DNA of 64,000 bases. Origin: a virus. Lineage: Duplodnaviria > Caudoviricetes. The notes beneath the pieces are model-generated. The model was given only the letters and a program-made list of their open reading frames with translations. It made no database searches and had not been told where the DNA came from. Positions 41,698 through 58,430 of this stretch are shown here, piece after piece; within the stretch, counting starts at the first letter, position 1, and each line of letters begins with the position of its first letter. The stretch is from the IMG/VR virus record IMGVR_UViG_3300023119_000004. One strand, written 5' to 3'. A program made the translations under genes and the position numbers.

Positions 41698-41774
41698 TGG
41701 CGCACTCGAAGAGATTCGAACTCCTGGCCTCCAGTTCCGCAAACTGGCGTTCTATCCAACTGAACTACGAGTGC
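41698..41774 (-). tRNA. tRNA-Arg, anticodon GCG, CCA encoded
   Basis: GCACTCG/CGAGTGC acceptor, D-loop GGA (A20), CCAGT-TTGCGGA-ACTGG anticodon arm, TTCGAAT T-loop, G73, 77 nt. Confidence 0.93.
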
Positions 41775-44521: not shown

Positions 44522-44595
44522 TGGTGCCCAGTGACAGAATCGAACTGCCAATAGATGATTACAAATCAACTGTTATACCATTTAACTAACCGGGC
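44522..44595 (-). tRNA. tRNA-Thr, anticodon UGU, CCA encoded
   Basis: GCCCGGT/ACTGGGC acceptor, TTTGTAA anticodon loop, GGCAG-TTCGATT-CTGTC T-arm. Confidence 0.88.
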
Positions 44596-54126: not shown

Positions 54127-54154
54127 TGTATGATCTCCTACCAGTAAATAATGA

Positions 54155-54176
54155 TAGTGGGGATTGCTCCCCACTA
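54155..54176 (-). terminator. Perfect 9-bp hairpin with GCAA tetraloop after hsp20 (weak U-tract)
   Basis: TAGTGGGGA-loop-TCCCCACTA. Confidence 0.6.
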
Positions 54177-54193
54177 CCGACCTTTTAAGTGTA

Positions 54194-54643
54194 TTACTTA
54201 ACTTCGATTGATCTTGCTTTTTTAGCCTCTGGAATAATTCTTTCCAAAGCAATTCTAAGCAAGCCATCTTTTAGTTCAGCACCTTGTACTACTACATCGT
54301 CTGCAATAGTAAATGATTTAGTAAAGTGCCTTTTACTAATACCTCTGTATTGTACACCATCCGCTTCATCGTCAGTTTTTGACTCTTGGATTGATTTAAC
54401 AGTTACCACACCGTCTTCGTATGATACGTCAATATCCTTTTTGCCAAAACCAGCAAGTGCTAATTCAATATCGTAAGTATAGTCGCCTGTTTTTACAATA
54501 TTGTATGGCGGATAGTTAGTGTTAAAAGTAGGTGCATTGAAGAAGTCGTCTTCAATCATTCTTTCGAATCTATCAAAGATAGGATCGAACCCTACTGATA
54601 CGGGTCTTAGTTGGTTAAAGATTGATAGTGATTTGTTTGTCAT
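54194..54643 (-). CDS. hsp20: Small heat-shock protein Hsp20 (IbpA-like)
   Basis: SVGFD, YPPYNI, LALAGF, YRGISKRHF, A.LKDGLL.I. Confidence 0.95.
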   Translation of the reverse strand: MTNKSLSIFNQLRPVSVGFDPIFDRFERMIEDDFFNAPTFNTNYPPYNIVKTGDYTYDIELALAGFGKKDIDVSYEDGVVTVKSIQESKTDDEADGVQYRGISKRHFTKSFTIADDVVVQGAELKDGLLRIALERIIPEAKKARSIEVK

Positions 54644-54713
54644 TTGTTTTCTCCTTATTAAGCAAGTTGTTTGTCATGTAAGACCTATCAAGCATCTTAC
54701 AATCTTATTTATC
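54644..54713 (-). promoter_or_regulatory. hsp20 leader: late promoter GATAAATA, covarying hairpin, ROSE-like SD-occluding hairpin
   Basis: UGUAAGA-UGCUUGAUAGG-UCUUACA then CUUGCUU-AAU-AAGGAG; same architecture as the dnaK leader. Confidence 0.7.
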
Positions 54714-56597
54714 TACCTCTTCAAACTCGGCGTCTACAACGTTTTCATCTTTCTTAGATGTTGTTTCTGCTTCTTCTGAAGTGTTAGATTCTTGTTGTGC
54801 CTTGTAAACTGCTTCACCTAACTTCATTGCCACTTGTGATAGTGCTTCTGTTTTAGATTTAATATCTTCAACATTGTCACCTTTAAGTGCTTCTTGTAAG
54901 TTAGTCTTAGCATCTTCAATTGATGTTTTAATATCTTCCGATACTTTATCACCGTGTTCTTTTAACTGTGATTCAACTGAGTGTACAAGACCGTCAGCAT
55001 TGTTTCTAGCATCTACGGCTTCTCTCTTTTGTTTGTCAGCCTCTTTATTTGCTTCTGCATCTTTGACCATTTGTTCAATTTCTGCATCACTCAAACCGCC
55101 GTCTGATTTAATAGAGATTGTTTGTTCTTTGCCTGTGCCTTTATCTTTTGCTGATACGTTAACAATACCGTTTGCGTCAATATCAAATGTTACTTCAATT
55201 TGAGGCATACCTTTTGGTGCTGGTGCAATACCTTCTAGATTAAAGAGACCAAGTTCTTTATTATCTACAGCCATTTCACGCTCACCTTGTAATACCTTAA
55301 TAGTAACTGCTGATTGATTATCTTCCGCAGTACTAAACACTTGTGATTGTTTAGTTGGGATTGTTGTATTCTTTTCAATTAGTTTAGTAGTAACACCGCC
55401 TAGTGTTTCAATACCCAATGAAAGCGGAGTAACGTCAAGTAGCAATACATCTTTAACATCACCACTTAATACACCTGCTTGAATTGCGGCACCTAGTGCT
55501 ACAACTTCATCTGGGTTAACACCTTTGTTTGGATCTTTACCAAAGAATGTTTTAACAGTTTCTTGTACCTTAGGCATACGTGTCATACCACCTACTAGTA
55601 CAACGTCTGTAATATCACCTTTGCTTACACCTGCGTCTTTAAGAGCAGTTTCACAAGGTTTAATTGAACGTTGGATTAGTTCGTCTACAAGACTTTCAAA
55701 CTTAGCACGAGTAATTTTTAAATTCAAGTGCTTAGGTCCAGAAGCATCTGCTGTAATAAATGGTAGACTGATGTCAGTTTGTGTTGTGCTTGACAATTCA
55801 ATCTTTGTTTTTTCAGCCGCTTCACGTACACGTTGTAGTGCTAGTTTGTCTGTTGAAATATCTACACCAGACTCTTTCTTAAACTCGTCTACAATGTATT
55901 GTGTAAGAACAGCATCAAAGTCTTCACCACCTAATGCTGTGTCACCGTTTGTTGAAAGTACTTCAAATACTCCGTCACCGAGGTCAAGTACTGATACGTC
56001 AAATGTACCACCACCTAAGTCATACACAACAATCTTGCCTGACTCTTTTTTATCTAGTCCGTAAGCAAGTGCCGCCGCTGTTGGTTCATTTACAATACGT
56101 AAAACTTCTAGTCCTGCAATTTTACCTGCATCTTTAGTTGCTTGACGTTGTGCATCGTTAAAGTATGCTGGTACTGTAATAACTGCTTGTGTTACAGTTG
56201 AGCCTGTATACTTTTCAGCAGTTTCTTTCATCTTGGTTAATACTTCTGCTGATACTTGTTGTGGGGAAAGTTCTTTACCTTTTGTTTCTACCCACGCATC
56301 ACCGTTCTTTGCTTCTACAATTTTGTATGGAAGCGTTTTAGCATCACGTGTGATTTCTTTTGATTTAAACTTACGTCCAATTAGACGCTTTGACGCATAG
56401 ATTGTGTTCTCTGCGTTAGTAACTGCTTGACGCTTTGCTGATACACCTACAAGTGTACCATCGTCAGTATAGGCTACAATACTAGGTGTAGTTCTATTAC
56501 CTTCTACGTTTTCAATTACTTGGGGATCTTTGCCGCTTAGTATAGCAACACATGAATTTGTGGTACCCAAATCGATACCAATAACTTTATTAGCCAT
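54705..56597 (-). CDS. dnaK: Chaperone DnaK (Hsp70)
   Basis: [44 protein letters not shown]; start at ATG 56597 after AAGGAG. Confidence 0.98.
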
Positions 56598-56668
56598 TTT
56601 TTTCTCCTTATTAAGCAAGTTTTAATTACAAAACCTATTCAGCATTTTGTAACATATAAGTATTTATC
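56598..56668 (-). promoter_or_regulatory. dnaK leader: late promoter GATAAATA, covarying hairpin, ROSE-like SD-occluding hairpin
   Basis: UUACAAAA-UGCUGAAUAGG-UUUUGUAA then CUUGCUU-AAU-AAGGAG. Confidence 0.7.
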
Positions 56669-56718
56669 ACTTATATAGTATATATAGTGTTAAATCGACT
56701 ATTTTTCAAGTCTAAATG

Positions 56719-57279
56719 TTACCGATTTATAAAATAAAACTGATTGATACTATATCTACCACTTCCTATACACCTAGATACACTATGTTGTAAAAAACTT
56801 GGAAATAATATAGTTGTATTATTTTTTAATGTAGGCTTATATCCAAAGTCTGTAAACTCTAAATCTCCACCTTCAAATGCTTTTGGTTCTTTCCATAAAA
56901 CTGTCACGGCAGATAATGTGCCATGATCAGCATGATGATCATATACTGCTCCGTTTCCATAATAGTTTACCTGTGTTACATCATGGTTAGTGTAAGGTAA
57001 GTATCCTGCAAACGGATTGTCTTTTAGTTGCTCTTGCAAATAAAATAGTTTCCTATTAAAGTTCAAGACGTAACTTTTTTCTCTGTTATCTTTATAGTGT
57101 GTATCCATGTGAATAGCACACATTTTATCATTTGCTCTAGGGTCGCCAGTTTCTGCTGACGGTCTAAAGTATGCGTCTAGTGAATTAATCTCTACAAGGA
57201 TTTCTTTTAGTTCCCACGGTTCGTAAAAATCGTAGATGATACTATGATGAAAAGGTTCATGTAGATTCTTAACAAGCAC
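56719..57279 (-). CDS. 2OG-Fe(II) oxygenase
   Basis: HHAD, FEGGDL, FPSFLQHSV, RYSI. Confidence 0.85.
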   Translation of the reverse strand: MLVKNLHEPFHHSIIYDFYEPWELKEILVEINSLDAYFRPSAETGDPRANDKMCAIHMDTHYKDNREKSYVLNFNRKLFYLQEQLKDNPFAGYLPYTNHDVTQVNYYGNGAVYDHHADHGTLSAVTVLWKEPKAFEGGDLEFTDFGYKPTLKNNTTILFPSFLQHSVSRCIGSGRYSINQFYFINR

Positions 57280-58430
57280 TAGTTACCTATTGTGTTTTTT
57301 TCGTATACAGTATTGTGTGTTTGTGTACAACGTACAAATGTAGCACATCTACTTAGATGTTTAAGTCTTATTGCGCCAGCATAAGTACAAGCAGAACGCA
57401 ACCCACCCAAGATATCTTGAACAGTAGTAGCCACTGCTCCTCGGTAAGGCACAAGAATTTCTCTTCCTTCACTGCTTCTATACTCCTTAAGGCCTCCAAA
57501 GTGTTTGTCGTTCGCGGCCTTCGAACTCATTCCGTAGAATTGTACAAACTTTTTTTCTTCAATTTTATTTTGTATACCACCTTGATCAAAAGTAACTTCA
57601 TCTGTAGTATACATTTTAGTAATTACTTCTCCACCACCTTCATCGTGCCCGGCGAGCATTCCTCCAAGCATAACAAAATCTGCTCCTGCGGCAAAAGCCT
57701 TTGCAACATCTCCAGGCGATACGCATCCTCCATCGGCAATAATGTGTCCACCGAGACCGTGTGCGGCGTCGGCACATTCAATGACTGCGGAGAGTTGTGG
57801 GAATCCAACCCCAGTTTGAATCCTAGTAGTACACACGCTCCCGGGACCAATACCCACCTTAACAATATCCGCTCCACTTAAAATTAACTCCTCTGTCATT
57901 TCTCCGGTAACTACATTACCTGCAATAATTACAATATGTGGATATAAACGTCTAAACTCTGCAACAAAGTCACGGAAACGATTTGAATATCCGTTAGCAA
58001 CATCGATACAAACATAACGTAACTTATCACCTGTTTGTTCATATACTTGACGAAACTTTTCATGATCGTGATCAGTAATACCAATGCTCATTGCTACATA
58101 CTGGGTACGTTCATCGTATTCACTATCAAAGTAACATACTAGATCATTTACACTATATGTCTTTTTAAGACAGGTAAACATTTTTACTTCAGCAAGTTTG
58201 TCTGCAACTTCAAATGTTCCTACACCATCCATGTTAGCGGCCATAATAGGAATACCCCGCCAGTGTCTATGATCAGGTCGGATTTGCTCCATGCTCATAT
58301 CTTGTGGCTTCCAGTTACGCCAAGTAAATCCTCTTTCAAGATCTACTTCTTTACGACTTCCTAAAGTTGAACGTTTAGGACGTAGTAATACATCTTTGTA
58401 GTCGAGTTTAATGTCTTGGTCGATTCGCAC
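57279..58430 (-). CDS. guaC: GMP reductase
   Basis: KLDYKDVLLRPKRSTL, ANMDGVG, CIDVANGYS, KVGIGPGSVCTTR, EGR; GTG start 58430 after GGAG. Confidence 0.93.
   Translation of the reverse strand: MRIDQDIKLDYKDVLLRPKRSTLGSRKEVDLERGFTWRNWKPQDMSMEQIRPDHRHWRGIPIMAANMDGVGTFEVADKLAEVKMFTCLKKTYSVNDLVCYFDSEYDERTQYVAMSIGITDHDHEKFRQVYEQTGDKLRYVCIDVANGYSNRFRDFVAEFRRLYPHIVIIAGNVVTGEMTEELILSGADIVKVGIGPGSVCTTRIQTGVGFPQLSAVIECADAAHGLGGHIIADGGCVSPGDVAKAFAAGADFVMLGGMLAGHDEGGGEVITKMYTTDEVTFDQGGIQNKIEEKKFVQFYGMSSKAANDKHFGGLKEYRSSEGREILVPYRGAVATTVQDILGGLRSACTYAGAIRLKHLSRCATFVRCTQTHNTVYEKNTIGN

Follow-up and report, generated by a model that had tools for sequence, protein, structure and literature searches.

A leader common to two phage chaperone genes

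The genes dnaK and hsp20 follow each other on the minus strand of a 64,000-nucleotide stretch of viral DNA (hereafter, the window; IMG/VR record IMGVR_UViG_3300023119_000004), and each is preceded by a leader of the same layout, which is the subject of this report. The parent contig of the window measures 77,990 bp, carries baseplate and tail-fibre genes of T4-like type and represents a fragment, its completeness being estimated at 21% by CheckV. The dnaK gene (54705 to 56597, minus strand) codes for a protein of 630 amino acids. The start given for it in the list of open reading frames was a TTG at 56618, which falls within the anti-Shine-Dalgarno (anti-SD) sequence of the leader, and homology points to the ATG at 56597 as the true start. 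The hsp20 gene (54194 to 54643, minus strand) codes for 149 amino acids, a small heat-shock protein (sHSP) of the IbpA family, which was aligned with IbpA and IbpB of E. coli. As argued below, both leaders are probably short two-hairpin, ROSE-like elements of translational control, homologous to the ibpA 5′ untranslated region (UTR) in SAR11 bacteria.

Both minus-strand leaders present, in the same order, the motif GATAAATA, a hairpin (hairpin I), a short linker and an identical block of 22 nt, and every one of these elements was found where a preliminary description of this DNA had located it. The leaders are 62 to 63 nt long (54644 to 54705 for hsp20) on account of the inserted element; most minus-strand KATAAATA sites of the window lie about 20 to 25 nt before an ATG. 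The putative late-promoter motif GATAAATA, which at both leaders corresponds to a T4-type TATAAATA-like −10 element, is located at 56661 to 56668 (minus strand) for dnaK, separated by 9 nt from the first pair of hairpin I, and at 54706 to 54713 (minus strand) for hsp20, where it overlaps the last dnaK codons and the TAA stop and stands 4 nt before hairpin I, the modal gap.

The outer stems of hairpin I have no sequence in common between the two leaders and are each self-complementary (UGUAAGA/UCUUACA and UUACAAAA/UUUUGUAA). They enclose UGCUUGAUAGG and UGCUGAAUAGG, which are identical at 9 of 11 positions and had been presented as a conserved 11-nt loop. The identity stands; the loop does not, most of the segment being paired (U.G, a bulged G, C-G, and a U-A that closes a 4-nt loop) to form a second bulged-G helix core capped by a tetraloop. 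Hairpin I of dnaK (56626 to 56652, minus strand) counts 11 pairs, with a bulged G at 56643 and the loop GAAU, and is supported by folding, by covariation and by a match of 71.2 bits to R1, a covariance model built from seven sequences with the two-hairpin structure. Its hsp20 counterpart (54677 to 54701, minus strand) counts 10 pairs, with a bulged G at 54693 and the loop UGAU, and is supported by the minimum free energy and centroid folds, by an R1 match of 73.1 bits and by covariation.

The identical block measures exactly 22 nt (54647 to 54668 and 56600 to 56621), the flanking bases differing at both ends, and it contains CUUGCUU-AAU-AAGGAG seven or eight bases 5′ of the ATG. Here, CUUGCUU can pair with AAGGAG and leave a bulged G, which gives a predicted hairpin II at 56604 to 56619 for dnaK (minus strand; anti-SD CUUGCUU at 56613 to 56619, loop AAU, Shine-Dalgarno (SD) AAGGAG at 56604 to 56609, bulged G at 56616; also placed by the ROSE_3 alignment described below) and at 54651 to 54666 for hsp20 (minus strand; anti-SD CUUGCUU at 54660 to 54666, loop AAU, SD AAGGAG at 54651 to 54656, bulged G at 54663). 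The exact 16-mer CUUGCUUAAUAAGGAG has two sites only, one in each leader, whether the window or the complete 77,990-bp contig is searched. At its apex (54686 to 54694; 56636 to 56644), hairpin I repeats the core of the SD hairpin, Y-G(bulge)-C-Y opposite R-G-G, and each leader thus holds two copies of the bulged-G motif.

The leader in related phages and in SAR11

When scanned with R1, the window yields only its two leaders, the next match reaching 12.4 bits. Across phage and host loci, the model finds 88 matches (86 distinct); in dozens of viral contigs they precede hsp20 and/or dnaK, and in SAR11 they precede ibpA. Almost all of 62 related viral hsp20 loci display an ATAAATA-type promoter (NATAAATA) followed by a hairpin with a YGCY...RGG apex and by CUYGCUU...AAGGAG, and the same order is seen in many phage dnaK genes and in hsp20 of the cultured pelagimyophage Mosig EXVC030M, which shares 71% DNA identity with the window gene.

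In the alignment of the 86 distinct sequences, 98.1% of the cells pair, and hairpin I shows compensatory changes at 8 of its 10 pairs. The covariation score amounts to 0.522, compared with 0.20 in shuffled alignments (0 of 500 reach the observed value) and 0.04 to 0.14 in slid controls. RNAalifold predicts the same two helices from the relatives, and a MAFFT alignment of 47 phage leaders that was not fitted to R1 gives 96.2% pairing and a score of 0.813 versus 0.284. The apical part of hairpin I has a bulged G in 83 of 86 sequences, followed by an invariant C-G pair and then by the covarying closing pair (C-G in 43, U-A in 40). Hairpin I is therefore held by its structure. The preliminary description had proposed a covarying hairpin from the two leaders of the window and had recommended aligning related phage dnaK and hsp20 leaders; the alignment bears it out on conservation and on covariation, which is strong in hairpin I.

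Hairpin II is conserved in sequence: CU[U/C]GCU and AGGAG are invariant in 86 of 86 relatives, in a noncoding region, the bulge base being G in 84 and A in 2, whereas the bases of the linker and the loops vary freely. The variable anti-SD position is U in 72 and C in 14 sequences (U.G to C-G), and the innermost pair is changed from U-A to A-U in three sequences, which belong to both phage and host lineages. Because the SD strand is constrained by the ribosome in any case, the invariance of the upstream strand amid a variable linker and variable loops constitutes the main evidence that this strand is functional.

Several relatives depart from this layout. Both leaders of viral contig L121 (1440 to 1499 and 3414 to 3475) have A in place of the bulged G (CUUACUU), L096 has the anti-SD variant CUUGUUU, and in L142 and L144, about 60 nt upstream of dnaK (locus positions ~1440 to 1500), hairpin I is present and the anti-SD before AGGAG reads UUUGUUU, reminiscent of fourU elements. 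The dnaK leaders of L072, L074, L076, L080, and L083 consist of the SD hairpin only (CUYGCUU...AGGAG), right after TTGACA-N17-TATAAT, with neither hairpin I nor ATAAATA. In a distant phage Hsp20 clade (L042 to L064), the leader has three hairpins, an extra middle one (CCGAUGGGUA...ACCAUCAG) being located between hairpin I and the SD hairpin.

The element is restricted to chaperone genes. Five whole phage genomes (141 to 328 kb) hold one or two copies, each at hsp20 or dnaK, the genes downstream of the matches in a pattern scan of viral contigs are almost all sHSP genes, and UYGCU...GGAG is present in 35 of 61 distinct upstream regions of phage dnaK. On the host side, five SAR11 genomes have exactly one copy apiece, at ibpA. 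In a sample of Pelagibacterales, one copy was found in 27 of 61 genomes, an underestimate given that only part of the candidates were scored, and two copies in none of the 61. The dnaK gene of SAR11 has a plain leader devoid of the ROSE motif, with a sigma-32-like promoter (CTTGCAA...CCCCATAT), and the leader on dnaK is thus specific to phages.

The proteins point to the same group of bacteria. The closest cellular relatives of the window Hsp20 are IbpA proteins of Pelagibacterales (58 to 68% identity), and in the Hsp20 tree the phage clade of the window is interleaved with SAR11 proteins in one well-supported group (98/88), outside of which lie the IbpA proteins of E. coli, Hyphomicrobiales, and Micavibrio. 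The phage DnaK shares 72% identity with that of SAR11, blastn matches to the window dnaK overlie dnaK annotations, and relatives of this DnaK are encoded in 165 viral contigs. The link to Alphaproteobacteria drawn in the preliminary description has thereby gained a concrete counterpart, namely the same leader on SAR11 ibpA.

Within phages, each hairpin I of the window resembles the leaders of the same gene in other phages, GCUGAAAAGG representing the type found at dnaK and GCUUGAUAGG that found at hsp20, which indicates that the duplication of the leader is old. General homogenisation within the genome was considered as the cause of the 22-nt identity and rejected, as the hairpin II segments differ in nine other contigs with two leaders. 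The most parsimonious history is that ibpA entered phages together with its leader, that the promoter was replaced and that the leader was redeployed on dnaK, the transfer presumably running from host to phage. Two loci binned into bacterial metagenome-assembled genomes (MAGs) were also encountered: L178, from a contig binned as a Rickettsiales MAG, has ATAAATA in its leader together with a hairpin closely resembling those of viral loci L037 and L090, and the Hsp20 encoded at L147, a locus assigned to a Parcubacteria bin, shares 67% identity with the phage protein. Both give the impression of phage or SAR11 DNA that was mis-binned.

Phage and host leaders are served by different promoters. Of 53 distinct phage leaders, 43 have ATAAATA at most 30 nt upstream of hairpin I, as compared with 2 of 32 host leaders and 0.8% of background windows, and the distance from the motif to hairpin I falls into two classes of 4 and 9 nt, with a mode of 4 nt. 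In the window, the nine minus-strand KATAAATA sites all lie at gene junctions. Host ibpA leaders are preceded by CTTGAAA-N-CCCATAT, a sigma-32-type promoter. The late promoter suggested at the outset is thus supported by the conserved position of ATAAATA before hairpin I, and its timing, judged from the motif, is presumably late. A candidate sigma-70-like promoter of the early or host type can be read upstream of dnaK at 56681 to 56709 (minus strand; TTGAAA at 56704 to 56709, a 17-nt spacer, TATATA at 56681 to 56686); a consensus scanner passed over it, the final base of the second hexamer being A. TTGxxx-N17-TATAAT-like motifs are found upstream of the leaders in many related contigs. The assignment of CTTGAAA-N-TATATA upstream of dnaK to the sigma-32 type was discarded, given a distance of 19 nt rather than 17 to the CYTATNT-like box, and it is indistinguishable from a sigma-70-like early promoter.

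ROSE-like features and the possible signal read by the leader

In ROSE-like thermometers, the 5′ UTR of a small heat-shock gene forms two to four hairpins, the last of which contains the SD in imperfect pairing with U(U/C)GCU and a predicted bulged G (PMC3669281; PMC11182007). The ibpA gene of Pseudomonas has a short version with two hairpins, in which hairpin II alone is enough for thermoregulation and hairpin I is dispensable (PMC3669281). The same features are found in the phage leaders. The hsp20 copy lies in the 5′ UTR of an sHSP gene, while the other stands before dnaK, a gene outside the classical ROSE targets. The RNAalifold consensus and the pair counts give two hairpins, and UUGCU is present in both window copies, imperfectly paired with AGGAG and with its G unpaired in the consensus structure. 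The ROSE signature that had been recognized by eye in the 3′ hairpin (U(U/C)GCU, bulged G, and SD) therefore agrees with the definition in the literature. Furthermore, in a 3.2-kb scan the Rfam family ROSE_3 detects only these two leaders (E = 4e-4 and 0.023), and its alignment spans either leader from end to end, keeping both hairpins and the start codon in register (32.3 and 25.5 bits).

According to the interpretation that we favour, the phage put the leaders behind its own T4-type late promoter in place of the sigma-32-type promoter of the host, so that the late transcript would begin at or close to hairpin I. The anti-SD UUGCU of hairpin II would pair imperfectly with the SD AGGAG, leaving the bulged G; as the predicted helix is only marginally stable, access of the ribosome would rise with temperature. 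Unlike its host, the phage appears to have placed the same leader on dnaK as well, and the synthesis of phage DnaK and Hsp20 would thus be coupled to one post-transcriptional signal that is independent of the host sigma-32. Feedback by the IbpA-like Hsp20, binding to these leaders, may be added, and if a protein does bind the leader, as the preliminary description had suggested for the conserved loop, this Hsp20 is the most plausible candidate.

The nearest-neighbour free energy of hairpin II is −3.5 kcal/mol at 4°C, −2.1 to −2.2 kcal/mol at 15°C and −0.2 kcal/mol at 30°C, in a crude model that leaves out the non-canonical pairs known from ROSE1 by nuclear magnetic resonance. The predicted zero crossing lies at about 32°C for the window, with medians of 36.5°C in phages and 39°C in SAR11, and at 69°C for the core of E. 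coli ibpA. Within the bounds of this model, the low zero crossing fits a switch set for cool, variable water. A “melting temperature” based on the probability of a fully open chain was also calculated and discarded, being inflated by unrelated weak structures, and was replaced by the energy of the consensus helix.

Several results weigh against this interpretation. The leader is not obligatory, 26 of the 61 distinct upstream regions of phage dnaK being devoid of it. The ROSE_3 scores remain below the Rfam gathering score of 43 bits, ROSE and ROSE_2 give no match, the ROSE_3 matches are gone when the whole window is scanned, a search of the window's own contig with RF02523 returned nothing at E ≤ 1, and no Rfam family reached the listed score on 20 phage loci (gathering score) or on 20 host loci (E ≤ 0.1). 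The energies of single-sequence folds are not unusual relative to shuffles (z = −0.52 and +0.15). Hairpin II is almost invariant, and the support for its pairing consists of one-sided changes plus three double changes rather than of rich covariation; the helix has no stability at 37°C in the model (+0.7 kcal/mol), and its temperature dependence is extrapolated from family resemblance and from the crude nearest-neighbour model. The count of KATAAATA in the window is not above chance (12 versus 13.2 expected), so that support for the late promoter comes from the position of the motif and not from its number. Finally, contigs of salt-marsh metatranscriptome libraries match the dnaK-hsp20 stretch at 100% identity, some of them bridging the dnaK-hsp20 junction; their presence in RNA libraries speaks for the interpretation, but such contigs can neither prove transcription nor give transcript starts or ends, strand or levels.

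With respect to Rfam, E. coli ibpA provides a control: it scores 100.4 bits on ROSE_2 and only 20.8 bits on ROSE_3, which indicates that the ROSE models are lineage-narrow and that a sub-threshold cross-match is to be expected of a sister subfamily. The Rfam search recommended in the preliminary description hence has a divided outcome, in that ROSE_3 aligns both leaders and does so below its gathering score. At these scores, the leaders fall short of formal membership in an Rfam ROSE family, and standard annotation would miss the element.

A signal other than temperature has a precedent. E. coli IbpA binds its own ROSE-like 5′ UTR and that of ibpB and represses translation until it is titrated by aggregates; this self-repression does not tolerate the replacement of R93 and requires an aromatic residue at the position of Y34, and both are reported to be conserved in alphaproteobacterial IbpA proteins (PMC10474464; PMC10410725). 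The window Hsp20, a member of the IbpA family, has equivalents of the essential Arg93 and of the aromatic residue (R105 for R93 and Y44 for Y34), as well as K109 for R97, where K is tolerated, while K98 is replaced by S110. By analogy, repression by Hsp20 may represent a second mechanism that does not exclude thermosensing and is either as plausible or additional to it, and given the ibpA-type leader on phage dnaK, whatever reads this leader would control both genes. The stronger proposition, that the leader is chiefly a protein operator, is in our opinion unlikely. Oligomers of the IbpA-like phage Hsp20, or the host IbpA, would repress the translation of hsp20 and dnaK until misfolded or aggregating proteins, for instance during massive capsid synthesis, titrate the sHSP and release both mRNAs, which would make the leader a sensor of aggregation, possibly acting jointly with thermosensing as in E. 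coli. The E. coli precedent and the conserved residues speak for it, as do the Y-G(bulge)-C-Y/R-G-G cores of both hairpins, which are conserved beyond the needs of a helix and offer two similar candidate binding sites, and the fact that R1 also detects the E. coli ibpB leader, a known target of IbpA (16.8 bits). However, K98 is not kept, the distant phage group with three hairpins has at the R93 position a K, which is inactive in E. coli, and yet retains the leader, E. coli IbpA does not act on the dnaK 5′ UTR (PMC10410725), and binding was demonstrated for gammaproteobacterial proteins only.

It is rather improbable that the leader is inherited baggage with a constitutive role, hairpin I shielding the 5′ end from 5′-end-dependent RNases and the 22-nt block providing a strong ribosome-binding context that was copied with the host gene, with no conditional regulation. 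Such a role would suit the position of hairpin I, which adjoins the predicted transcription start in phage and host, the very weak predicted hairpin II and the dispensability of hairpin I in Pseudomonas (PMC3669281), but it leaves unexplained why CU(U/C)GCU is invariant in all 86 sequences when the bases of the linker and the loops are free to vary, why the innermost U-A is swapped to A-U and how the element spread independently to dnaK across many lineages of phages.

T4-like marine phages carry promoter-associated stem-loops and KATAAATA is common at the gene junctions of the window, but a generic intergenic motif of this kind, a genome-wide repeat or a chance resemblance is hardly credible and, as regards a phage repeat or promoter stem-loop, contradicted by copy number and placement: the 64 kb of the window and the 78-kb contig each contain two copies and no more, whole phage genomes contain one or two and always at hsp20 or dnaK, the same element stands on the single ibpA of the host, and the pattern scan of viral contigs leads almost exclusively to sHSP genes.

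Setting, significance and comparison with known systems

The dnaK-hsp20 unit is closed by an intrinsic-terminator-like hairpin followed by a T run (54153 to 54178, minus strand), 16 nt past the hsp20 stop. DNA of the window is present in salt-marsh metagenomes, and between 51000 and 60000 contigs of four salt-marsh metatranscriptome libraries cover dnaK, hsp20, and most of their neighbours at 100%. The summed contig depth is lower at 56719 to 57922, just upstream of the dnaK promoter region, in 4 of 4 runs, which is a hint only, as contig depth cannot rank genes. Two tRNA genes lie on the minus strand of the window (41701 to 41774, 67.8 bits; 44525 to 44595, 61.3 bits), and in the related loci L042 and L066 tRNAs are found directly upstream of the chaperone leaders. 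A clpS-like gene follows hsp20 in a 148-kb relative (L209:703-1008), and a glutamine riboswitch (RF01739, 67.3 bits) lies about 60 nt 3′ of hsp20 in a related viral contig (L029:3500-3550).

The leader described here is a real, conserved, probably host-derived, ROSE-like element in a new setting: in a phage, behind a late-type promoter and on dnaK. Literature searches found no publication on ROSE-like elements in phages or in SAR11; a 2024 paper counts three phage RNA thermometers, none of which is ROSE-like (PMC11182007), a 2009 survey of structured RNAs in Pelagibacter makes no mention of the element (PMC2704228), and Rfam has no annotation of it on SAR11 ibpA or on these phage chaperone genes. 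Many uncultured T4-like and jumbo phages from marine and fresh waters carry the element on chaperone genes, and SAR11, the most abundant heterotroph of the ocean, carries it on ibpA. The element would exemplify an auxiliary gene that entered a virus along with its own RNA regulator, the promoter being exchanged for a phage late promoter and the regulator being redeployed on dnaK, a gene under sigma-32 control in bacteria. This points to an ability of phages to regulate the synthesis of chaperones post-transcriptionally, with no need of the heat-shock sigma factor of the host. The low predicted melting point would tie the temperature of sea or marsh to the protein-folding capacity of the phage in a testable manner, and the twin bulged-G cores provide a handle on how IbpA-type proteins may recognize RNA.

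Taking the ROSE-like reading and Hsp20 feedback together, one may tentatively picture a purely post-transcriptional mini heat-shock regulon that is independent of sigma-32, in which the phage took host ibpA with its leader, copied the leader onto a separately acquired dnaK, and uses Hsp20 bound to the twin bulged-G cores as a sensor of aggregation. If this possible though doubtful scheme were true, the output of DnaK and Hsp20 would follow both the folding load of virion assembly and the temperature of the water, and the leader would provide the first case of a virus co-opting a cis-regulatory RNA of its host and extending its use to a new target gene.

Among known systems, the ibpA thermometer of Pseudomonas (ROSE_3, RF02523; PMC3669281) is similar in its two hairpins, its 5′ UTR of about 60 nt, the SD of its 3′ hairpin imperfectly paired with U(U/C)GCU, its unpaired start codon, and, in the ROSE_3 consensus, a GAYGCC...GGGUC-like core in hairpin I; ROSE_3 is also the sole Rfam family that aligns with both phage leaders end to end. 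By contrast, the phage leader is AT-rich, its hairpin II lacks the flanking G-C pairs emphasized for Pseudomonas and is predicted to be much weaker, it stands behind a putative phage late promoter instead of a sigma-32 promoter, it is also found on dnaK, and it belongs to the SAR11/phage lineage. The ibpA and ibpB elements of E. coli (ROSE_2, RF01832) likewise place an IbpA-family gene behind a UCGCU/AGGAG hairpin with a bulged G, the ibpB hairpin (ACUCGCUU...AAGGAG) reading as in many phage copies and the ibpA leader having a GCC-UGAU-GGG apex like the core of hairpin I. These elements differ from the phage leaders in having three to four hairpins, a core hairpin with a predicted −4.6 kcal/mol at 37°C against the positive value obtained here, a family model (ROSE_2) that does not match the phage leaders, and a dnaK gene that lies outside IbpA/ROSE control.

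Rhizobial ROSE (RF00435), represented by ROSE1 of Bradyrhizobium japonicum hspA, shares SD occlusion, UYGCU with a bulged G, and an alphaproteobacterial sHSP gene; unlike the phage leaders, it is about 100 nt long, comprises four hairpins and is GC-rich, and RF00435 gives no match here. The phage thermometers of lambda cIII, SPbeta blyA (fourU), and the sigma-70 fourU (PMC11182007) are also cis structures in phage mRNA leaders for which control by temperature was proposed, but they are not ROSE-like, do not stand on chaperone genes and are single cases, whereas the present element recurs in environmental phages.

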